64,000 bases of DNA, taken from the NCBI GenBank assembly GCA_010093605.1, contig MU004184.1, positions 1,808,801 through 1,872,800 of the forward strand. Reading direction: 5' to 3'. Shown here piece by piece: positions 9,198-49,089 of this stretch (the stretch's first letter is position 1; each line of letters starts with the position of its first letter). A model generated the notes under the pieces. That model had not been told where the DNA came from, did no database searches, and saw only the letters and a program-made list of their open reading frames with translations. Made by a program: the position numbers and the translations under genes. Origin of the DNA: Lophium mytilinum. Its lineage: Eukaryota.

Positions 9198-10030
9198 GAT
9201 CAGATTAGCCCCGTGCTGTACCTGGACGTTGTCAATGCAGTTCAGGCAAAGGAAATTGAGCCCGTACGCGAAATTCTGGGGTTTGTGGAAAGGTCAATTG
9301 GCGGATGAAGCTCTCGACTTGTATGAGGCGGGACGGGTAGCGGGCACGGCGAGCGGTGCGGGATCGCAACCCTCGGTAAACTTCGGAAGAGTAAATCCTT
9401 ACACCACCACAAAACCGAGCCAGCTGCTGAAAGTTTGGGTGGCCGGCGGGAGGATAGCGCTTTGCTCCAGGTATCCGAAGATTTGGATAAGAAACGTGGT
9501 CTGGTACGTGGGCAGGTTGTCGAGTATTCTAACGGTTCTATCAAAATCATCTTCCCCGCACTCCGCAACTCTCCATCCTCAAGAGCTTCGGCATACGCCG
9601 ACATATTTTACCTATAGCTTTCAAACGAGACCGAAGTCGGGTAGTCATGTGCCCGGAGAAAGGGGCCAGACGCAATCTAATAAGTTGTCTTTACCTCTTA
9701 GGCCGAGCGGCTTTGAGCTTTTTGCTTCGAGTCTACCCTCGGCATAAAAAGGCTGCTGTCTGGTATTGTCCTTTTAACACGTTTCTTTCCTTTGTTTTCA
9801 AACTTCTGGGCTTCCCAATCCTACAAAAGTTCAAGGAGTGGAGATGTCTTAGGTTGACTTTGGTTAGGAGTTCAGTCAGAATCTAAGAAGATAACATATA
9901 CTCTGGTCTACTCTATGTCTACGCTCTAAAGTTTCCAATATCTCATCTCTCGAACCCTACTCTACTCTCTCGAAGCGTTCGAAGTCACTTTCTACTAGAA
10001 GCCCCTGAGATCTGACCCAATATCCGCTTC

Positions 10031-10888
10031 CTACTGTTGAATTGGGAAGCCAACGCCAATCAAGAATGCAGGCTCCTCAATGTTGTGATGTTGATAGCTA
10101 TATAGAGTCAGTAGGCATCGCTCACATTCCAGTCTAAACTCACCTCAACACACCCACAGCCCCTGGCTCCAACATCATCGAAAGCGGAAACTCCATCGGA
10201 TACTTCAACCACCTCTTCGTGAATGCCCTCAACAAATGCCCATGCGCCACAAGCACTACATCACAAGCCTTCTCCCCATGCATATTCGCGGCCTGAAAGC
10301 CATGGATGTCTTTGATCAGATCATCAAGCCTCTCTGTAACCTGCTGCGCAGATCTATGGAACTTGTCAGCACCCACTCATGAACCGTCCAAATCTGGATA
10401 TCACTCACTCTCCCTCCTCACACCCGTCCCTCCAAATATCCCACCCGTTCCCATCTAATCCCCTACTCGTCCTCCCCTCCCTAATCTCGTGCGTCTTCAA
10501 CCCCTCATACAGCCCGTAACCCCACTCTGCTAGTCTTTCCGTCTCGCTCACTTTCCCCTTTTGATCTAGCTGCTTGCCGTGCTCGCCGAATGCTAGCTCG
10601 AATGTTTTCTGGGCACGTCGTCTGGGACTGACGAAGATATGGGCAAGTTTTGAAGGGTCCACCAATTTGCCAGGACCTACGATCATGGCCCCTGAGGCAA
10701 GAACTTGGGCTTCGCCGTGCGGAGTGAGCTCCAGCTCGGTTGTGCCGGTGTAGCGGCCGTTTTTGGACCATTCGGTTTCGCCTGGGCAATACTTAGTCCC
10801 AGTAGTTTAGATGTGAGACTTCATTGAAATGTCTAATACCGTGTCTATAGAGGAAAACACGAGGGGTGCCAGCATCTTTGTCGGTCAT
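10031..10888 (-). CDS. SHB17: Histidine phosphatase (phosphoglycerate mutase family), sedoheptulose-1,7-bisphosphatase-like
   Basis: RVFLYRHG/ETEWSKNGRYTGTTELELT, SPRRRAQKT, EWGYGLYEG, WDIWRDGC, VAHGHLLRAF and YQHHNIEEPAF across 5 exons. Confidence 0.88.
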
Positions 10889-11468
10889 CCTGGTCGCTGG
10901 TTTTGAAGCTGTTGCTGAGGTTAGGGAAGGGCATTTAGATCAGACGAGAATATTTACGGCAGAAAAGAACAGAAAAATACCCTCGCTCTTGAAGTAATAA
11001 TGTGAGAAGTGTCTGACAATGGTTGCTCCAAAATTCTCACAACTCCTTCGTCACTTCTAGGGTTTGGGAAGATCTAGAATACAGTTGGCGAGAATACTGA
11101 GCATGAGAGACACAGTCCGAGAAATGATTAGATATGATTGAGATACTGAGATCTCCCTTTGCGAGCTTAGAGGAGCTCAGGATTTGGAGATCTGCAGACT
11201 TGAACAACTCATACGATCTCGCACCGGTCTTCGGGATGCATTGGACCACGTGGGGGTGTTGAGTTTTTGCTATTCATCACCAATGAAACCGTACTCAGCC
11301 ACGGTAGTGCGCTTAACTTTAGAAGCTAGAACGGAATTACCATATCTACAGGGATCTTTGTATTCTACTCAAGATTACAGAGAACTCGAAGGTGGTTTCA
11401 CATTTTCACGTGACTCTCGGGGTCGCTCGAATGATTTTCCGAAGCGTGTCCGCGATCTATGTCAACGA

Positions 11469-11482
11469 AGCTCATCGGAGCT
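11469..11482. promoter_or_regulatory. Possible proteasome-gene (Rpn4-type) element: AGCTC...GGAGCT inverted pair
   Basis: AGCTCATCGGAGCT ~210 bp upstream of the RPT4 ATG. GGAGCT is the proteasome-associated motif described for filamentous ascomycetes. Short motif, could be chance. Confidence 0.35.
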
Positions 11483-11685
11483 GTCACCACCTTGCCTCCA
11501 CATAGTAGCTGCGACCCCAGTTCACCTATCTTCGCTCATCTTGGAACCTCTCCGTCCGCTAGGCCGACGCCCCCGAAACGCAACTTACAACTTCTGGATC
11601 TCCGACGTAGGCTTCCAGCCGCGTAACTGCTTCGTGAACCACCACCCTCCTCCAGCTACCACACCTACACCCACACCCAACCACG

Positions 11686-13045
11686 ATGAGCGGCAGCGAT
11701 CCGGAGCGCGACCATGCGCTGGAGGAATACAAGGATAAGCTGATGGACTCTAGGGAGTGGGAGGCGAAGCTGAAGGCGCTACGGTTGGAGATCAAGGGAC
11801 TACAACATGACTTCGATGTCTCGGAGGACAACATCAAGGCGCTGCAGAGTGTAGGGCAGATAATAGGTGAAGTGCTGAAGCAACTGGACGAGGAGAGATG
11901 TGGGTACTCCCGGAGGTACTGCGAGCAGGCAGACTAGCCCGCGTTGCGACTTCAAGACCAGCAGCTGACAGTTCCCCAGTCATTGTCAAAGCATCCTCAG
12001 GGCCTCGATATGTCGTCGGTTGCCGATCAAAAGTCGACAAAGCGAAGCTGAAGCAAGGAACTCGTGTCGCTCTCGATATGACGACTCTCACAATAATGCG
12101 GATGTTGCCACGCGAGGTAGATCCGCTCGTCTACAACATGTCCTTGGAAGATCCCGGCCAGGTCAGCTTCGGTGGAATTGGTGGACTGAATGAGCAGATT
12201 CGAGAACTGCGGGAGGTCATCGAGCTACCACTCAAGAATCCCGAGCTGTTCTTGCGAGTTGGTATCAAGCCGCCGAAGGGTGTTTTGCTGTACGGTCCCC
12301 CTGGTACCGGAAAGACTCTTCTCGCGCGTGCTGTGGCTAGCAGCTTAGAGACCAATTTCTTGAAAGGTAAGTTCCCAGGTCGTCGAACTGTCTGATCCAA
12401 GACTGACGGGTCACAGTTGTCTCCTCCGCCATCGTGGACAAATATATCGGAGAATCAGCGCGCCTAATTCGAGAGATGTTCGGGTATGCCAAGGAGCACG
12501 AACCATGCATTATCTTCATGGACGAAATCGACGCTATAGGTGGACGAAGATTCTCGGAAGGCACATCGGCAGATCGGGAGATCCAGCGGACGTTGATGGA
12601 ACTGCTCAATCAGCTAGACGGCTTCGACTACCTTGGGCAGACGAAGATCATTATGGCAACAAATCGACCGGATACCCTGGACCCCGCGCTTCTTCGAGCT
12701 GGACGGTTAGACCGAAAGATCGAAATTCCCCTGCCAAACGAGGTTGGGCGGCTGGAAATCATGAAGATCCACGCACAGGGTGTGCAGACGGAAGGCGAGA
12801 TTGACTTTGAGAGCATTGTCAAGATGAGTGATCAATTCAACGGTGCTGATTTGAGGAACATCGTCACTGAAGCGTACGTTGACTCTTCCGAATTCTATGT
12901 ATAATCGCTAACCTAGACACACAGTGGCCTCTTCGCAATCAAAGACTACAGGGACGCCATCAACCAGGACGACTTCAACAAAGCCGTTCGCAAGATGGCT
13001 GAATCTAAGAAGCTGGAGGGCAAGCTGGAGTACCAGAAATTGTGA
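11686..13045 (+). CDS. RPT4: 26S proteasome regulatory ATPase subunit Rpt4 (10B)
   Basis: [35 protein letters not shown] Walker [10 protein letters not shown] Walker B, C-terminal EGKLEYQKL; 3 introns. Confidence 0.97.
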
Positions 13046-13243
13046 TGAGAGCATCGATCCCTTCGGTTCTACCCTAAACAAGTTCTTGAACATCAGCTCT
13101 GGCGTCTATGGCGCCCTCGGCACATAGATCATGTAGTATAGTAGCTAGCTAGATTCTGCATGACACTCAGCTCGTCAACTATTAGCAAGCAAGCATCACG
13201 AGCATGTTTTCAACCATAGTCCTTTTTTGAACGTTGATCTCGT

Positions 13244-14215
13244 CTACGATGGACCATACACCAGACACTCCATCTCCACACCTTTTAGGCCCTCGATCTC
13301 GAGTACATTCTGCCCCTGAAGGTCCCACCTCAACTCTAATTCCCCGAAGTAATTCACAGTCTCTGAAACCTTTTTGAATCCAACACTCTCGAACAGCCGT
13401 ATACTCCGTGCATTCTCCCCATCGATCTTCACGCGAAGATACCTTAGATCTAGACCAGATCCTGTACCCTTACCACCTTCCGTGCCATGACCCTTGCTAT
13501 ACTCACCAACGATAGCAGGAATATTCGACACGATATACGCCAAGAACGCAAGCAGGACCGCTTTCCCATACCCACTCCCCTGCAGCTCTTTCCGCGCTAT
13601 CATGATCTCGATTTCGCCGATGATGCTGCGTTCCTTGACCGCATCCTCCTCTTTTAGGGATTCTTCTGCGTCGTCGTCCTCGTCGTCGTCGGCTTCGCAG
13701 AGGAAGAGGTTCACATCGCCGAGCATGCGGTCTGGGGCGTCGTGTTCGGTCGGCGTCACTACTTGGGGTCTGAGAGTCGGGGCAGTGCAGACTATGAAAG
13801 TGAGTTTGTCGTGGTCCAGGCGCCAGCTGCGCTGCATAGCGTATTCTTCGGAGAGCGTGAGGGGTTCGGAGGCGGTGGCTTTTTGTAGGGCCTGGCGTGG
13901 ATGTGTGAGTGGAAGGATGGGGGTTGGAGAATGGAGATTGATTGAATTGAAATTGATGTGAATGATGAATTGGACCTTTTAACTTTGTTTACATGCTTGA
14001 TGGAAGGTGTTTGAAGAGACTTGAAGTGGGACCTAATGGTATAGTGAAGGTGTGAAGCCTTACCTCATCTTGCATCCATTCGTGATATGTTGGTACGTGA
14101 TGCTCTGAGTATGGCACCAGAAGGACTTTAAGTGTGAGGATCGCTGGTCCTGAGAATTAAACTTGAAATCTCGGAAACACTTAGGGTTCAAACCTGTCTT
14201 CTCGTTCAACAGCAT
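13244..14215 (-). CDS. NAT9: GNAT N-acetyltransferase, NAT9-like
   Basis: MLLNEKT/AILTLKVLLVPYSEHHVPTYHEWMQDE/ALQKATASEPLTLSEEYAMQRSWRLDHDKLTFI, GDVNLF, EIEIMIA...GYGK. Confidence 0.88.
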
Positions 14216-14419
14216 CTTTCTTGAGCAGCTCTAATTTCCTCTGGTGTTGTTGTAGATGCGATCGATCATCGTGCCTAGTAAAACCTGGGAGCGCTAGGGT
14301 GTCATTTCGGAAGCGAGATTACTTCGTATTCTGGGACTCCATCTCAACATCATCCGTTTTGCTTCCACCAGCCCTTTCACGATGAACGAGTTCGATTCTT
14401 CTAGCAATCAGCAGCAGCA

Positions 14420-15697
14420 ATGGAAAAAGTGCTAGTCACGGGCGGGACCGGTTTCCTGGGCTCAGCAATCGTCAAAGCACTCCTAGAGACGAAGAAATAC
14501 AATGTCACGGCCCTAGACATCAACCCGCCGTCATTAGGCACAGCATCGTACCCAGATGTCAATTATGTCCGCGCCAGCGTGTTAGATATTGAAAGCATCC
14601 AGAAAGCAATTGAAACTGCTGAACCAGCTGTTGTGATCCATACCGTCGGGGTTTACCACACTGATGGCAGAAGATACAACCAGGCAGGCCGAGAAGAGCT
14701 GTTTGGGATCAACGTCACTGGTACGAAGAATGTGCTGGAAGCTGCAAGAGAGTTTGGAGTCAAAAGTTTCGTCTATACGTCGTCTTGGGCGGTTGTGATG
14801 GACGATTTGGAATTTGATCATCCGAATATGGATGAGGATTCACCGGTCGGACATGCGAGTTTGCTGTATGGACAGTCGAAGGCAAGTATACTTCTCTTTA
14901 AATCGAAATTCGAGTCAAGTTTGCTTTTTCCTTGAAAGTCTCATATAGATGAGACTTCCCTATTCCTGGATGTTTGCATCATCACGGAATCGGAACCTTG
15001 TTCAATTCCTTTTTCTAGCTTATTCGCCTTCTTCTCTAGAGTTCTTCAACTGACACCAAAAAGACTGCGGCCGAAAACATCGTACTCGGTGCCAATACGT
15101 CCCAATTCCGCACCTGTGCCCTTCGCCCCTCCGTCATAATAGGCCCTGGCGACCCTGCAACCATTCCCATCCTCCACGCATGCATCCGAAAAGGGGAAAC
15201 CCCATTCATCATCGGAAGCGGCCATAACCTCACCGACTTCGTCTACGTTTCCAACATCGCCGACGCTCACATCCTCGCCGTTTCAAACCTTCTCACTACA
15301 GGCTCTGCCGCTGGCGAGGCATTTTTCATTACGAATGGCGAGCCGATATCTATGAGAGACTTCTGTCTCGCGGTTTGGGTAGAATTCGGACATGTGCCGT
15401 GGTTTGAGATTAGGATTCCAGAGTCGCTGGCGTGGGGATTGGGATGGGCGGCGGAGTGCGTCACGTGGTTTACTGAGCAGCCGGCGACGTTGAGTAGAGG
15501 GGCTGTGAAGGACGCGTGTCTGTCGAGGTATGCAAATATCGACAAGGCCAGGCGGGTGTTGGGATACGAGCCTAGGGTGGGATTGGCCGAGGGGACAAAG
15601 TTGGCGTGCCAGGTATTCATTCTTCTCTACCCTACTACGACAGTTCTGACACGTACGATTGAAGGAGTATAAAAATCGAATATCGCACAAGCGATGA
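14420..15697 (+). CDS. 3-beta-hydroxysteroid dehydrogenase / sterol-4-alpha-carboxylate 3-dehydrogenase (ERG26-like extended SDR)
   Basis: VTGGTGFLG Rossmann motif, YTSS, YGQSK catalytic motif, RPSVIIGPGD, DFVYVSNIADAH, GEAFFITNGEP; 2 introns, the first GC-AG. Confidence 0.88.
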
Positions 15698-42020: not shown

Positions 42021-45000
42021 ATGACCTCGGACGTCACGGCCCGCGCGAAAGCGGCAGATACGATTACACCTGGCAAGGACATCTGCCTGCTTGCGCTCGA
42101 TGGCGGCGGTGTGCGCGGCCTCTCCGCGCTTCACATCCTCAAGCAGCTCATGGAGCTGGTAGACCCAGAAAACCCACCAAAACCATGCGACTACTTCGAC
42201 CTTATCGGAGGCACCTCAACGGGAGGCCTCATCGCCATCATGTTGGGTCGCCTGCACATGAACGTGGACGAATGCATCACCGAGTACAAGAAGCTCTCAA
42301 CGAGAGTTTTCACGAAGATACACCACCGAATAAATTGGAAGGGAGATGTGCAGGGACGGTTTGATCATGAAGCTCTCGTGCTCGGTGTGCAAGAGCTTCT
42401 TGTGTCGAGAGGGTTGGACAAAGATGTACTGCTTAAAGATGCAGCGGGAGCCTCTGGCTGCAAGACGTAAGTTGCCTGTTTGCACTATTGCTCAACCTGG
42501 TTTAGTCGTCGCTGATACTGAATACTCCAAACACAGCTTCGTCTGTGCTACAAGTGAACTGACAGGCGACACCGTCATCCTGTCGAGTTACTTTTCAAGA
42601 AGGAGAGGTACCTCGCTATTGAACGTAGCCAAGGTGTGGGAAGCCTCGAGAGCTACTTCTGCAGCTAGCTCCTTCTTCGATTCCATTCAGATTGATAGCG
42701 AGGGTTTTGTGGATGGCGCTAGTGGTGCCAACAATCCTATCGACGAGATTTGGTCGGAGGCTCGAGACATCTGGCGTGAAAGCAGTGACTGGAGACTAGA
42801 AGATAATCTCAGATGTCTCGTATCCATTGGGACTGGAGTACCTACGCTGAAGCCTTTTGGGAAAGACGCAATCAAGATTGGGAAGTCCTTGGTCTCCATC
42901 GCTCTGGATACGGAACGCAGACATAACACGTTCCAGAAGCATCATTCTAGCTTATTCCGAGAGAATCGCGGTTTTCGCTTTAATGTCATCCGCGGCTTGG
43001 AAGACATTGGGCTGGAAGAAGCGGACAAGCAAGGAGATATCCTTGCCGCGACACGGAGATATACGCAGTCTGAGGACATCTATGATCGGATGGAGGCATG
43101 TGCGCAGGCTCTGCATGACAGAAAATGTGCGTCTACCGCTTGATATTTCGAGAAGTTCTACCTTCGACCGTGGACGATAACGAATCATGTTTTTCGTTCC
43201 TGCAAGCTAATTAGTCTTTCATAATGTTTAGGGTTTTGGCAGACCGTTCAAGAAGTTTACTCGAAGGACAAGCAATATGATTTGTCGTACTCTTTTTCCG
43301 ATGACTCGCCTCTTCGTGAGCAATACTTCATGCCATATTGCAATACCTCTAGTTTCCGAGCATGGTGCGAGAACAAGGCAACAGGATTACGATGCGAACC
43401 GCCACCAAATGCACCGTGGCCTACCCGCTCTCTTGCTGCATTCATCCTGGATCAACTGCGCGCTATAAAGCCTCGATCTTTTTTGAACACAACAGAAGAC
43501 GTAAATGTCCTAGTCGCACGTTGGGATTCGTCAGCGGATGGCAGCCTCAAAGATCTGCACCAGGTCTGGCTCTCTTTGCTCGGCCAGACTTTGAAGCTGA
43601 TTCTAGATCGATATTTGAACGGCAATACACTAGAACACGAGCTTGAACACACTGCCCGAAATTTGCTCCCAATTGCCGCCTGTCAGCAGTTCTATGTAGC
43701 CAGAAAATATGGTCAGCAACGTGTTCAATCCGGCCAGCTTCTAGCGACCTTGAAAAGCATTCTACTGGACAATGACGAACCAGTCGTCATGGTGCTATTA
43801 GGGAGTGTAAAAACAGAGCATTGGATGAACGTAATAGGGTCACTTGCCGCAAACTCTACGACAAGACATATCAAAATCCTCCTCTGTGGCGAAGTGAGCG
43901 ATTTGGGATCACCGAATTTCCGGCACTTCGAATCGATCGACGCGAAAACTGAGTATAAAGGTATTTTGGCCGGATGATAGACTATTTGCTTACTGACAAA
44001 TTCGCAGAGTGTATACAGTCGCTCTGCTTAGATGGTTATCGCGATCGTCGGGATGAAGTAGCGATCCGAGAACCAGAAACCAATCAGTGGATCTGGAATC
44101 ATCCTTCATTCCAGGCATGGGCTTCGTCCAAGACTGGCGTACTCTGTATTCTAGGAAAACCCGGCAGCGGCAAATCCGTCTTGGCTAAGACAATTCAAGA
44201 GAATGAGGTTGCTAAATCCACGGTTTCGAGCTATTGGTTCTACAGTAAACGGAAAGGTGAAAAATACACCAGCCACGCTTCTCTCATCCAGACAGTTCTC
44301 TGCCAGATATTGGAGTCAAATTCAAAATATCTTCCCTACTATTACGACTCGTATCGTAGGAGGTACCCAGAACGAAGCATTTTGACTATAGAAGACATGA
44401 TATGTGTTCTGAAAAAGATCGCTGAAGCTGGAGAAAGCATATTCTGCCTGATCGACGCCCTTGATGAGGCAGATGACGATACGATTTTGCATACGATCGG
44501 CGACCTTGTTTTTCACACTCCGAACTCTCGGATGAAATTCATCATCTTGAGCCGTCCTTTGCCTTGTCTCGAGCAAAAGCATTGGCTAGATTACAGTGTT
44601 GTCCTCCAAAGGGAGAATGAACCAGATGTCCAGAGAATCATCGACGCGGGACTGAAGCGCCTCCAAGAAGCCATGCATTCTCTTGATAGCGACGAGGATA
44701 CGGACGGGGAGGACGATGACTCGCCATCTATTCGGCGTGGGCCTTTGAGGACTAAATCAAGTCCTATGCACAAGACGTCTCAACGGCGCATAAAAGCTCG
44801 ACATCCAGAACAGACCGACATGACGACAATTCGAGAAGCCTTACTCCTCCGCTCCGACGGTGTGATTCTTTGGGTCGCCCTATGTATTGAAGAACTCCTT
44901 AAGCTAGTCAGAAGCCCATTATTCAGAACCCACCAGTTGAAAGTCAAGATCAACAGCCTGCCGGCCGACATGACCGATTTCTATTCTCAGATTGTGCACG

Positions 45001-48000
45001 ACTTACAGAACGCACTGAGCGAGGATGACCTGGCGGTAAGTCGACAAGCCTTGATGTGGGTCGCTGGGGCAAGTGAGCTAGGAACATTTCATTTGCAGGA
45101 GCTCTGGGACGCTCTTGCAGTCTCGGCGCCGCCCACAGGACCCATACCGGAGGGAGATGATCCTATCGTCTTCAACAGAATCCAAGTAAGAACTTGGAAT
45201 CAATTTCGCCGTACACTCCAGAAATTGTGCGGGCCCTTTATCGAAGTCTTGCCAAGCGAGTCAGATGGACATTCTCAGAGTGCACCGAGAAAAGAGCATG
45301 CCGGTCCAGAGTCCATCGTCCAATTGATGCATCAAACGAGTAAGGACTTCTTGGGAAACCGCGATGACGCAGGTCCATTGCATTTCACCAGGGAGGCCGC
45401 AAGAGCGTTTGTTATTGATGGTATAATCCGCTATTTGATCACATCCCACACCTACGTACCAGAAATCCAGTCCTCGCCCTCGCCCGACTGGATATTCCAA
45501 TGGGTAAAGTCCGTTGATAATCTTACCGCGTACTTGGACGATAGGAAAATGCTCCATTTTGCTCTTGCGGTCTCTAAAAGCGAGCAACTGGTGGTGGACG
45601 TAACTACGGCGATCGCGCGAGCATGTCTACTTCCAAAAATGCAGATCCACGATGCCAACGTCCAACTGCATGATAAAGCTTTCGATGAAATCCCCCAGAA
45701 GCTCATGGGTTTTATCGGGGCAGAGTCCGCGCTTGTTGGTAGATTGTTTTATAACGCAGTCACTTATGGTCTTTCAAATGCCGTCGTCAATCTACTAGAC
45801 ATGTCCATGCTAATCGAAACTTGGTGGCCTCAATTCGAAGACAGTGTGCTCAACGCTGCATATTTGGCTGCCTTGGATCACAACATGAACGAACTAGGGG
45901 ATCTTTTATGGACTGATGCTAGAAAGGAAAAGTATAACGTTTTTTCACTCCCTCCGAAGATACGAGCACAAGCCTCTTCTCTAGGTGAAATCTCTGGGGA
46001 CGAAGATGACGTCGAAGTAGCGATATCACGGATCATCAGCCGCTGGCAATTATTGGAACGGCGTGGCACTATTGGCACTCTTGGGGTTTGCGCGCTTGAT
46101 TCCAAGGCTCGAAGCAAACCAATCAGTAGACTCCTAGAGCAAATCAGCCAAAATGCTGAGTTCGACATCATAATGTTCGGGGATAAAAACATTCTGGACG
46201 AGCCAGTGGAGAATTGGCCGCCCTGCGACTTCCTCATCTCGTTCTTCTCGGGAGGCTTTCCCCTTCAAAAGGCCATTGACTACGTAACGCTGCGAAAGCC
46301 ACACTGTGTGAACGATCTACACATGCAGATGGCTCTCCGGGATAGACGAGTGACCCTTGCATTTCTCGATGAAATAGGTGTACCTACCATTGAGCGAGTT
46401 GAAGTGAACCGAGATGGGGATTTTGCGATGCCTTACGCAGTCCTTATCCGGCGAGTGAACTCGGGTTCCGGACTTGTTACACTCGAAGAAGACGGTGATG
46501 TTCTCGTCGTTGGCGTAAAACGACTAAGAAAGCCCTTTGTGGAAAAACCAGTAGACTCTGATGACCACAATATCTACATATACTTTTCGAATGATCAGGG
46601 CGGAGGAGGAAGAAGGCTTTTCCGAAAGACTAACAACAAGAGTTCAGAGGTAGATGAAACTCTCCATGTCCCCCGAGCCATTACGGAACCTGAAAGCAGC
46701 TACATATATGAGAAATTCTTAGAAGCCGAAAATGCGGAGGACGTCAAAGCATATACCGCCGGTGAATTTTATTGTCGTGCAGAGACAAGGAAGGCTCCAA
46801 TAGTCGATGGCGTTGTCAAGCGTAATACTCACGGAAAGGAGATTCGCTACATCACAAGTTTATCCCGCGATGAAACTAGGATGGCGTCCAAAATTGTACA
46901 AGGCTTCGGCCAGACAGTCTGTGGTTTTGGCATTATCCGTTCGAATGGTCAGAGCTACGTCCACAGCGTTAGTGGTTGGAGCTTGGTGAAGGACAATGCA
47001 GAGTATTCGAAAAATTGCGCCGCCGTCTTACGACAGTTGTTCATCGATGAAACCAGGAATCGTGAATTACCCCGAGGTCTGGCCAAAACTTTTATATCCA
47101 GGAACGTACAATCTAGGTCCGTTCAGGCTTCATTTAATAAAAAATTGGAGTGGGACCTGCCAGAGTTGAGTACCGCCCCCAAAGGCCATGAATACAACGA
47201 CCTATATCCTATTCAGCTCCGCCGTCACGAATCAAGGACGCTACCCGGAATTTCGAAACACTTCGCTCCGTCATCATTGCGCAGTCCAGTAACAGGGTCT
47301 GGAGGATCAAAACCTTCAAGTCTACCCTCGTCCCGCGACATTAAGTATGGACATAATTCAGGGTTGTCCTCCAGTGGTACCTCTGATAAGAAATCACCGA
47401 TGGCGTGGAAGTTAAAGGGGATCGTTGCAGTTCACAGCCATGGAGACAGCACCCCTAAACAAGATCTCGAGTTCACTTTTCACACAGACCCATTCATTGA
47501 CTTACTCGAAGGCCATGGAAATGAAGTGACGTTGACAAAACAGTCTGCCATCACGCGCCTACAATCAGTCGCAGACTCAGCGCTCCATGTTGCTGCTGAA
47601 AATGCCGATGATTTGAGAAAGCTCAATACCGCGCTGCAGAAGACAGTCAAAGAAGTCAAACTGTCAACCAAACCAACCGATTTTGGATCACCTCCTGTTC
47701 CTGAACAAGTTAATTTGGTTATACATCTTGGAAATGACCCCACTCATGCACTCATTTATCAAACACGAGAGCTAGCAGAAAACTTCCGGCGCGAGTTCCT
47801 TCTTATGAACGCGGAGCTTTTGGGTGACTTGCATGTTTTCTGCTCTTCAGAGGCAGCAGCATCGTATACCGCACATATATTTACCGCGAGGTTGTTAGGC
47901 TTCAATGATATTCCTTCGGACTTCATCCAGGAACGAAATGACCTCCTCGGCGATTCTTTAGATGCCACAGGTCAGCTAGAAACGGCTCAAAAGCAACTCA

Positions 48001-49089
48001 ATCAGCTCTTGAGAGAAGAGATGAAACCCTCCGCTCAATCTGTGTGGCCTTTGGATATGCCAGAACCCTCAGTTGTTGGCAAGCGTCTCCACCAATCGAT
48101 TATAGCCAACAGAACGACAGTGCTGCTTAACTTTTCGAAGTTGAATTCGGCAAATATCAACCTTGTTCAATCCCGATGGTGCTCAGGACAAGATCCGTAC
48201 CTCTTTATGGATCGCTGGGAGAAGCTCCTTGCCAGAATTTGCGGCGCCCCCAGAATTGACCCAGCTCAAATCGTTGAACTTTATAACAGTCTCAAGTTTG
48301 ATGCTGTTCACAACCGAGAATTTCTCGAGTGGTGCTTTACACCGACTGATCCAACAAGCAGCGACAGCCGCGAAGACACCATGGCCAACTACTCCACCCT
48401 CCACTCACGAATTCCAGCTCCCGCGCAACACCAAGACAACTCACTGAAACGACTTCATGAGCTGTGGCATCTTTGTAAAACTATGTTCGATTACATATAC
48501 CCACTGAAATACGGCACTACGAGTGGCGACAAGCTAGAGATTGGTCTTCTGTACTCCCTACCACTGCTACAAGAAGTTGTCCAAGATCTGGAGGAGATGC
48601 AGGCATCTGACGACTCAAAATCCTTCTTTTATTTCACAAACAATTCCCACATGTACACTCTTCTCAATTGCATTCTTGAGGGTACTTTGAAGTCAAAGAT
48701 GGCTACAAATCAAATCCCCACGCTTGATTGTCTATCCAGCATGTGTTTTGAACTCTACGAGAGGCACTCTTCCAATTCAAGAGAATTTGAATACAGCCTG
48801 AAGATCACCCTAAGTCCAGGTTGCCACGCCTATGACCCTCTAAATACGTAAGCATAGCATCCAGCTCAACTTGATACGATACTGATTCCTCGTAGTGTGG
48901 TTGATTCCCATCATGCAATCTTCAGTGCACCCCGAAGGGACTTGACAGGGCACATCGACTGGAAAGAAGCAATAGAAACGCTTCGTGTTTCAATCCAAAG
49001 GTACGTCTAATCAAGCACGGTCTCGGTACTAAAAGGTCTCAAGCTAATATCTATTTAGAATGAAGCTGCCTAAGTCGTTCATGACCTAG
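42021..49089 (+). CDS. NLR-like protein: patatin phospholipase - degenerate NACHT - NACHT - helical region - Vip1/Asp1 (PPIP5K) pseudokinase/pseudophosphatase; ~2246 aa
   Basis: Exons 42021-42466, 42537-43126, 43232-43960, 44008-48847, 48896-49000, 49059-49089. All introns are GT-AG with branch sites, and the coding total of 6741 nt is in frame. Patatin DGGGVR, GTSTG, DGA. NACHT GKPGSGKS (44154-44177) and IDALDE. PPIP5K GVCALDSKARSKP...WPPCDFLISFFSGGFPL...RNTHGKEIRY...LSPGCH...KLPKSF. Confidence 0.9.

Follow-up and report, generated by a model that had tools for sequence, protein, structure and literature searches.

A Patatin-NACHT receptor gene of Lophium mytilinum with an integrated Vip1 body whose kinase-like half lacks the metal ligands

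Structures of the small-molecule kinase-phosphatases of the PPIP5K/Vip1/Asp1 family are available for ScVip1 (9GRH, and 9GR8 for the kinase domain; PMC11836120), S. pombe Asp1 (8E1H) and human PPIP5K2 (3T7A). In Asp1, the inositol phosphate is held in a nine-residue cage, the residues R123, K197, H204, E248 and D258 touch ATP, and D321 and D333 sit on the metal with N335 on the gamma-phosphate (PMC9765450). Here we describe a homologue of these enzymes that forms the C-terminal part of a NOD-like receptor (NLR) gene, downstream of a Patatin phospholipase and a NACHT domain, and whose kinase-like half has lost the three metal ligands alone among its contact residues. The gene lies on the forward strand of a 64,000-nucleotide stretch of Lophium mytilinum (contig MU004184.1 of assembly GCA_010093605.1, positions 1,808,801 to 1,872,800), which we call the window and number from its first letter.

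Related receptor architectures have been described in fungi and plants. An N-terminal patatin phospholipase followed by a P-loop nucleotide-binding oligomerisation domain (NOD) is found in PLP-1 of N. crassa and HET-Z1 of P. anserina; cell death by PLP-1 requires both its patatin activity and its P-loop, and the protein guards the essential host protein SEC-9 (PMC12881547). In NLRs with integrated domains (NLR-IDs), known from plants, the sensor end carries a fused copy of a housekeeping signalling protein, and Sordariales NLRs with an integrated CHK2/PRD-4-like protein kinase domain have been proposed to act as decoys or bait (PMC12258605). Finally, in the plant helper NLR SlNRC2, inositol hexakisphosphate and pentakisphosphate (IP6/IP5) bind the leucine-rich repeat (LRR) sensor domain and are required for cell death (PMC11338831).

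The Lophium gene combines features of all of these. It is homologous to the Vip1 family over both enzyme domains, with the ATP-grasp fold, the cage and the ATP contacts, but unlike canonical Vip1 (median identity 62% over the kinase domain) it lacks the metal ligands, reads SHGDSTP at the phosphatase site and is fused behind Patatin-NACHT; it is similar to dead forms engineered in Asp1 (D321A/D333A) and ScVip1 (K414A-D487A / R547A-H548A-R551A). With PLP-1 and HET-Z1 it shares the order of patatin and P-loop NOD; whereas PLP-1 has NB-ARC and TPR domains, the window has a NOD of the NACHT/NPHP3_N type and an enzyme-derived C-terminal module without Pfam repeats. As in NLR-IDs, the integrated domain is homologous to a free-standing host protein, since it groups with Dothideomycete Vip1 (SH-aLRT, an approximate likelihood-ratio branch support, of 99, in a quick tree with long branches). 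In contrast to NLR-IDs, the integrated unit is a small-molecule kinase-phosphatase, replaces the sensor instead of being added to a tripartite NLR, and has no head-to-head partner NLR among the window ORFs searched. Like SlNRC2, the protein would carry a candidate inositol polyphosphate site at its sensor end; the SlNRC2 site is built from LRR and winged-helix (WHD) residues, whereas the candidate site would be a borrowed enzyme pocket. Neither PPIP5K nor His_Phos_2 is mentioned in the main text of PMC12258605 or in the searched part of its supplement (12 of 17 files), and our literature searches, judged by titles and abstract beginnings, turned up neither a fusion of NACHT with PPIP5K nor a pseudokinase derived from PPIP5K.

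One expressed gene from Patatin to the phosphatase-like domain

The locus is an expressed NLR-type receptor gene that joins Patatin, NACHT and a whole integrated Vip1 body. Its parts are given below, where P0001 denotes the uninterrupted open reading frame (ORF) at 43959..48851 (forward strand, 1630 residues), whose frame also holds the kinase-like domain, X1 an RNA run, L001 an orthologous contig described further on, and dN the nonsynonymous divergence.

42021..49089, forward strand: whole gene in 6 exons; splicing gives an ORF of 2246 amino acids comprising Patatin, NACHT, Vip1-like kinase and Vip1-like phosphatase
42467-42536, 43127-43231, 43959-44005, 48848-48895 and 48999-49056, forward strand: introns; each GT..AG and skipped in contigs of run X1
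42021..43126, forward strand: Patatin-like phospholipase (effector) domain at the N-terminus, encoded by exons 1-2; each exon ORF matches PF01734 (E 2.8e-13 and 1.9e-06)
44079..44555, forward strand: NACHT-type NTPase (NPHP3_N); PF24883, E 2e-27, P0001 residues 41-199
44556..46064, forward strand: post-NACHT helical region and fusion junction; BLASTP against P0123-P0133
46065..47060, forward strand: Vip1/PPIP5K kinase-like (ATP-grasp) domain; P0001 residues 703-1034, from phmmer against the PDB, PF18086 and an AlphaFold2 (AF2) model
47061..47393, forward strand: inter-domain linker, nearly unconstrained; 25% amino acid identity and dN 1.03 against L001
47394..49086, forward strand: Vip1 phosphatase-like domain (His_Phos_2), exons 4-6; PF00328 and 9grh match

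A spliced X1 contig of 6941 nt, starting at 43232, crosses the NACHT and both Vip1 halves and extends past 49600 with zero mismatches. X1 is the sole public run covering the stretch and is recorded as guessed RNA; because its contigs are spliced, it is read here as RNA. The 2246-residue frame was obtained by joining the exons by script at the X1 splice joints, from the ATG at 42021 to the stop codon that begins at 49087. An artefact of two neighbouring genes is ruled out by the 6941-nt spliced contig over the NACHT-Vip1 junction, by the 1630 open codons of P0001 and by the same single ORF in L001. The integrated PPIP5K kinase domain recognised in an earlier note, which was made from the letters of the window, is borne out as a full domain, in frame behind the NACHT and on one spliced mRNA; the end given there (46066..47060) stands, and the start lay one base out of frame, the domain reading from 46065.

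The joint 43126>43232, between Patatin and NACHT, has weak read support, a single 59-nt contig with a 29-nt side. Further support comes from the open frame and from Patatin-NACHT relatives that align colinearly with the spliced protein in BLASTP. Unlike the 59-nt contig, a 164-nt RNA contig over window positions 43098-43261 retains the intron 43127-43231. Separate RNA contigs carry the Patatin exons and the NACHT-Vip1 exons, and a shorter transcript with Patatin only may be conceivable.

Public annotation splits this gene and hides the fusion. The Lophium mytilinum model P0002 (1025 residues, the top protein match, 100% identical) holds the two Vip1 domains only: it starts at an internal Met, residue 643 of P0001 (window 45885-48848), and omits Patatin and NACHT. 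Its C-terminus reads …SIQRYV, against the RNA-supported …SIQRMKLPKSFMT, which uses the intron 48999-49056.

The signature motifs of both upstream domains are intact. In Patatin these are DGGGVRG, GGTSTGG (GxSxG) and VDGASG, at full-length residues 27, 63 and 207, which we take to be the oxyanion hole and the Ser-Asp dyad. The NTPase has a Walker A (GKPGSGKS, 44154-44177) and a Walker B-like motif (FCLIDALDEA, 44442-44471), both read in their usual functional sense. The PF05729 NACHT model scores 21.2 bits on P0001, under its cut-off of 26.7, and the three Pfam domains found there are PF24883, PF18086 and PF00328. No C-terminal repeat family (WD40, ANK or TPR) was found on P0001 by Pfam; the Vip1 body stands in that place.

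This position is informative when compared with non-fused Patatin-NACHT proteins. The nearest of these are P0125, P0127, P0129 and P0132 (from Xylaria, Chaetomium, Parastagonospora and Diplogelasinospora; 28-34% identity). Colinear alignment of non-fused relatives to the full protein starts at residue 12-23 and reaches about 1208-1222, homology stopping near P0001 residue 636-650 (about 45870-45910). The C-terminal tails of P0125, P0127 and P0129 measure about 190-230 residues, and the Vip1 body sits in the tail's place. Its location behind the NOD and the replacement of the relatives' tail therefore mark it as the sensor part. Precomputed Pfam lists contain no repeat domain for any of these four relatives, which would make this an NLR-like clade lacking a repeat sensor of the classical type.

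Residues kept and lost in the two Vip1 halves

The kinase-like domain is readily assigned. A phmmer search against the PDB matched ScVip1 9gr8 (E 8e-113), S. pombe Asp1 8e1h (1.3e-105) and human PPIP5K2 3t7a (1e-76), and PF18086, the PPIP5K kinase N-terminal domain, matches P0001 residues 707-795 (E 3.2e-34; 117 bits against a cut-off of 35). An AF2 model of the domain has a mean pLDDT (per-residue confidence) of 83.4 and a predicted template modelling score (pTM) of 0.83, with low confidence at residues 125-133 and 246-250, and superposes on ScVip1 9gr8 and on ligand-bound Asp1 8e1h with template modelling (TM) scores of 0.89-0.90 in Foldseek. Where 9gr8, 8e1h and 3t7a read CGFDLLR and YV(I/C)DVNG(W/F)SFVK, the window reads CGFGIIR (46920-46940) and YVHSVSGWSLVK (46956-46991). 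Three codons carry the change; Asp1 numbering follows the 8e1h alignment (chain index + 29) and was checked on D321, D333 and N335.

46929..46931, forward strand: GGC, Gly at the place of the Asp1 D321 metal ligand; L001 has GAC (Asp)
46965..46967, forward strand: AGC, Ser at the place of the metal ligand Asp1 D333 / ScVip1 D487; L001 has GAC
46971..46973, forward strand: AGT, Ser at the place of Asp1 N335; L001 has AAC

The D>G, D>S and N>S replacements at 46929-31, 46965-67 and 46971-73 are exactly those that the earlier note had claimed, and alignment to Vip1, Asp1 and PPIP5K2 confirms that the D/D/N places read G/S/S. Sequencing or assembly error at the triad is ruled out by an X1 RNA contig over 44006-48847 without a differing letter. 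The Asp of the DVNG motif had been named as the site mutated in kinase-dead enzymes, and this holds for both yeasts: Asp1 D333A is inactive (PMC9239264), and K414A-D487A is the kinase-dead ScVip1 form of Raia et al. (PMC11836120), in which the K414-D487 spacing equals that of K231-D304 in the alignment of chain 9gr8 and thus places D487 in the DVNG motif.

The remaining contacts are identical throughout. All nine residues of the inositol-phosphate cage (K43, R223, K224, K260, R274, R285, K290, R293 and K341 in Asp1) are kept, and the basic substrate-pocket motifs listed in the earlier note map onto them; so are the five ATP contacts (R123, K197, H204, E248, D258), and none of the catalytic metal ligands (D321, D333, N335). 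The claim that Mg/ATP catalytic residues had gone therefore stands for the Mg ligands and falls for the ATP contacts. As placed by alignment, the losses are confined to the metal ligands among the 17 contact residues, and all 14 other ligand contacts are kept.

In Asp1, the substitutions H204A, R223A, K260A, D321A and D333A each reduce activity to under 5% of the wild-type level, and N335A leaves 45% (PMC9239264). Since D321A and D333A each lose activity, phosphoryl transfer has almost certainly been abolished in the Lophium domain, which by its metal ligands would be a PPIP5K/Vip1 homologue and not a competent member of the enzyme family. With the cage and the adenosine and phosphate contacts intact, such a pseudokinase would most likely still bind inositol poly- or pyrophosphate.

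The loss is selective when measured against the whole domain. Among 172 canonical kinase domains, 60 columns are at least 98% conserved; four of these are altered in the window, namely the three ligands and an F->L change in SFVK (hypergeometric p 1.2e-4 for all three ligand columns among the four). In an independent MAFFT alignment of 36 sequences the 14 non-metal contacts are invariant and D289, D301 and N303 nearly so. In a separate count over 85 columns with at least 95% conservation, five changes are confined to the window, D289G, L291I, D301S, N303S and Y315S, and three of the five fall on ligands (p 1e-4). Replacement of the triad needs at least four nucleotide changes.

Departures from D/D/N are also rare among the proteins gathered. 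Of the first 301, 239 match the domain; four of these end before the triad and 235 cover the triad columns at least partly, with departures only in P0001/P0002 and in P0172, P0267 and P0274. The last three, P0172 (Cladophialophora psammophila, 1237 residues), P0267 (190 residues) and P0274 (308 residues), read G/N/K, H/G/H and N/G/K at the triad. They are close neither to the window copy nor to one another, and their cages are partly eroded, unlike that of the window. Their nearest canonical Vip1 proteins come from Rasamsonia, Aspergillus and Talaromyces for P0172, from Lachnellula, Marssonina and Oculimacula for P0267, and from unnamed sequences and Ustilaginoidea for P0274; given these separate relatives, dead Vip1 paralogues seem to have arisen several times. 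P0172 further carries RNGDH instead of RHxxR, and a Cys/His-rich N-terminal region of 300 residues without a Pfam match.

The phosphatase-like half has fared differently. PF00328 matches P0001 residues 1151-1616 (E 9.7e-26; 91 bits against a cut-off of 23.6), and ScVip1 9grh is matched at E 1.5e-94. In ScVip1 numbering (9grh chain index + 533; outer-site and GAF residues read by hand from the alignment), SHGDSTP at 47436-47456 replaces RH[G/A]xRxP, giving R547S and R551S with H548 kept. R547A, H548A or R551A alone leaves less than 3% activity in ScVip1 (review PMC13573052). In the gathered set 302 proteins read RHADRTP or RHGDRTP, and the five that read SHGDSTP are window or Cenococcum copies only. 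The outer InsP8 site, with residues as listed in PMC13573052 and PMC11836120, carries K558E, K605D, K732Q and K817R; among the GAF residues E576, K623 and K627 are kept and Q625 is Ser.

Erosion extends well beyond these sites. At 57 columns that are at least 98% conserved among 229 canonical phosphatase domains, the window has changed at 17, often at a K or R in the substrate channel. Thirteen of the 57 have changed in both fusion copies, window and L001, six to the same residue (including R1160S and R1164S) and seven to different residues; four have changed in the window only and one in L001 only. The seven divergently changed positions (P0001 residues 1171, 1256, 1337, 1344, 1517, 1562 and 1591; window 47469-48731) may mark either relaxed constraint or, in what was once the channel, a diversifying recognition surface. 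The changes common to both copies, many at K or R, indicate that the phosphatase was disabled and much of the basic channel stripped before the split of Lophium and Cenococcum. The earlier view that catalysis was removed selectively and ligand binding kept is consequently valid, as far as residues can tell, for the kinase half only; the phosphatase half was disabled and its channel eroded as well. Set against 17 of 57 changed columns in the neighbouring half, the conservation of the kinase pocket is not mere inertia.

The Cenococcum-like orthologue and the history of the fusion

A search with the NACHT part found a Cenococcum geophilum cluster with 57% identity over 943 colinear residues, across the junction and into the kinase N-lobe. 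The full architecture is present in C. geophilum P0146 (1661 residues) and in the metagenome genomic contig L001 (93% identical to P0146), where Patatin exons are followed by one ORF of 1728 residues (9944-15130). P0146 and L001 read CGFDILR and FINDING, with D/D/N kept, and L001 keeps 17 of the 17 contact residues of cage, ATP and metal. Loss of the triad as a property common to all NACHT-Vip1 fusions is ruled out by these two copies; kinase death was an event of the Lophium lineage, not a feature of the fusion family.

In a quick tree of the whole module, with long branches and without a canonical Vip1 from the same order, the window copy clusters with L001 and P0146 (SH-aLRT 100), and this clade groups with 18 Dothideomycete Vip1 proteins at the support given above. 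This clade and the shared architecture indicate that the fusion arose once. At that stage the kinase half probably retained its competence, to judge from the residues of the orthologues, and by the same comparison the triad is lost on the Lophium lineage, by those four or more nucleotide changes. None of 17 ORFs flanking the gene in L001 matches the window, and because the flanks are without synteny, orthology of the window and L001 copies rests on sequence and architecture. A search with the phosphatase-like part returned the query itself at 1370 bits and next, at 470 bits, canonical Vip1 proteins throughout, with no further orthologue; a search of representative sequences returned only canonical proteins and three unrelated triad-dead fragments, cluster members being hidden behind their representatives.

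Several observations concern the Cenococcum locus itself. In C. geophilum 1.58 the orthologue is modelled as two proteins, P0142 and P0147, broken inside the kinase-like C-lobe (compared with L001 12722-13100). P0142 ends after …SLHTPRA plus 15 residues that are absent from all forward frames of L001, the first residues of P0147 are out-of-frame kinase-like C-lobe (frame 2, L001 12894-12960; the ORF is in frame 1), and P0142 and its cluster-mates read RRLFGK. To all appearance the locus is intact in L001 and P0146 but disrupted or polymorphic in certain strains. A stretch of about 47 residues in frame in the phosphatase-like part of L001 (…NTAREYSETHEIRQ…LIPR) is absent from P0146 and the window and retained in P0147; it is probably an intron that stays in frame.

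Divergence between the window and L001 is uneven along the gene: dN is 0.21 in the NACHT core, 0.26 in the kinase-like domain, 0.37 in the phosphatase-like domain, 0.56 at the junction and 1.03 in the linker. With the linker as an internal yardstick, the kinase-like domain evolves about four times more slowly than the least constrained part of the same gene. Against an outgroup formed by the canonical consensus, it shows 10 window-only and 12 orthologue-only changes over 114 columns that are at least 90% conserved (chi2 0.18), and this lack of an excess over a copy that keeps its triad argues against decay of the domain. The check on neutral decay proposed in the earlier note thus leans towards constraint by rate and by count, dS itself being saturated. 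The Lophium domain is no more eroded than the triad-keeping copy, which fits continued constraint or a recent loss.

Among window ORFs of at least 170-200 residues searched against Pfam there is no second or helper NLR. In the neighbouring ORFs Pfam recognises, among others, an MFS transporter, a Zn2Cys6 factor, an SDR, Utp13, a methyltransferase and a kinesin, and it gives no match for several of them.

Sensor, bait or decaying enzyme

Our tentative preference, at a probability of roughly 0.4, is that the Lophium Vip1 module, as a pseudokinase, retains the binding of an inositol poly- or pyrophosphate, perhaps together with nucleotide, and relays lobe closure to the NACHT. In such a receptor, the Patatin phospholipase would act as executioner, the NACHT as switch and the Vip1 body as C-terminal sensor. 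The phosphatase half would have been disabled before the Lophium/Cenococcum split while the kinase half stayed under purifying selection, and the Lophium lineage would then have swapped the three Mg ligands for small neutral residues, the loss of two carboxylates making the pocket more electropositive. The lobes of Asp1 close and a loop orders upon binding of IP6 or 5-IP7 (PMC9765450); such closure, or its block by a pocket occupant, may be passed to the NACHT, so as to control its oligomerisation and Patatin-mediated cell death. Killing of the kinase makes sense because the phosphatase of the same copy is dead and an unopposed kinase is toxic: on low phosphate, lethality is caused by the ScVip1 kinase domain on its own but not by its kinase-dead form (PMC11836120), and in fission yeast an excess of 1,5-IP8 is toxic (PMC8749416). 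SlNRC2, whose cell death requires the IP6/IP5 at its sensor domain, offers a precedent for such a receptor (PMC11338831).

Several findings weigh against this reading. The ancestral fusion needed no dead kinase, and the Lophium state could be recent. The fusion is present in two lineages only, within the collections searched. The window branch is the longer one over the whole module (3.64 against about 1.3), and over 207 columns of the phosphatase-like domain there are 33 window-only and 17 orthologue-only changes (chi2 5.1). The synonymous divergence (dS) between window and L001 is saturated or uncomputable for most regions (NG86 and YN00), for which reason no branch-specific dN/dS is given and linker-relative dN and relative-rate counts were used. 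Lastly, conservation of the pocket is also expected if it is needed for folding or for mimicry of Vip1.

Mimicry is central to the closest competitor, which we consider somewhat unlikely. Here the module is purely a protein bait, or integrated decoy: the Vip1 body mimics free Vip1 for a Vip1-targeting protein, small-molecule binding is irrelevant, and the kinase was killed to avoid unopposed IP8 synthesis. The partner might come from an antagonist or mycovirus, as an effector or toxin, or be allelic and act in allorecognition. Much of the architecture agrees with this. The module lies C-terminal to the NOD, the usual place of sensors and integrated domains, it replaces the tail of about 190-230 residues of the non-fused relatives, and the whole Vip1 body is integrated, from kinase to phosphatase end, with its fold kept; the seven near-invariant phosphatase positions that diverged differently in each lineage are as expected for a diversifying recognition surface. 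There are precedents in the integrated kinase decoys proposed for fungal NLRs (PMC12258605) and in the guarding of SEC-9 by the Patatin NLR PLP-1 (PMC12881547), and the toxicity of an unopposed kinase (PMC11836120) explains the loss of the triad as well. A faithful mimic should keep the phosphatase channel, yet 13 of its 57 near-invariant columns have changed in both copies. All five buried ATP contacts are kept over a divergence at which dS is saturated, which a bait would need only if they matter for stability, and no paired helper NLR was found among the long window ORFs searched with Pfam. It counts against a bait, too, that we know of no Vip1-targeting effector, no literature search having been aimed at one. 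The data do not separate a protein bait from a ligand sensor.

Very unlikely in our estimation is a recent loss of function, in which an ancestral active kinase was lately lost in Lophium and the module is starting to decay or has become dispensable. The complete set of 17 contacts in L001 means that the Cenococcum-like copy may still use an active kinase. The models of C. geophilum 1.58 that break in the C-lobe indicate a locus dispensable in some strains, and the longer Lophium branch and the excess of window-only changes in the phosphatase half point the same way. Neutral decay would scatter changes, however, instead of placing three of five window-only changes over 85 columns on the ligands (p 1e-4), and it would have to account for at least four nucleotide changes in the triad. 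The kinase domain shows no excess over the orthologue (10 against 12), and the ORF of 2246 residues is intact over five correctly spliced introns and transcribed. Residual or altered catalysis, by phosphate transfer or ATP hydrolysis through other metal ligands or another mechanism, is scarcely credible: Asp1 N335A does keep 45% activity and H204, K260 and R223, essential in Asp1, are all present, but D321A and D333A each leave less than 5% (PMC9239264), the window has lost both together with N335, and no acidic replacement appears at adjacent near-invariant positions.

Recognition targets are known for very few fungal NLRs, and integrated domains have been proposed in them only recently, for protein kinases; here a whole inositol-pyrophosphate enzyme stands at the sensor end. 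The two orthologues form a natural matched pair, one with every catalytic kinase residue and the other with only the metal ligands removed among the contact residues. If the Vip1 module is only a bait, some antagonist is predicted to target Vip1. If its pocket binds and gates, inositol-pyrophosphate signalling would be tied to the control of a fungal NLR, where so far there is only the binding of IP6/IP5 by a plant NLR. The preferred reading has a more specific form, a metabolite-gated fungal NLR whose metal-free pocket would bind 5-InsP7, InsP8 or InsP6 without turnover and whose closure would set NACHT autoinhibition; in this detail it is unlikely. Were it true, Patatin-mediated cell death would answer to the inositol-pyrophosphate level, and hence to phosphate and energy status or to manipulation by an antagonist. 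The triad-keeping Cenococcum-like copy would then represent the enzyme-competent precursor state, and the independent triad-dead Vip1 proteins of three other lineages would suggest that Vip1 has been recruited repeatedly as a binding module.

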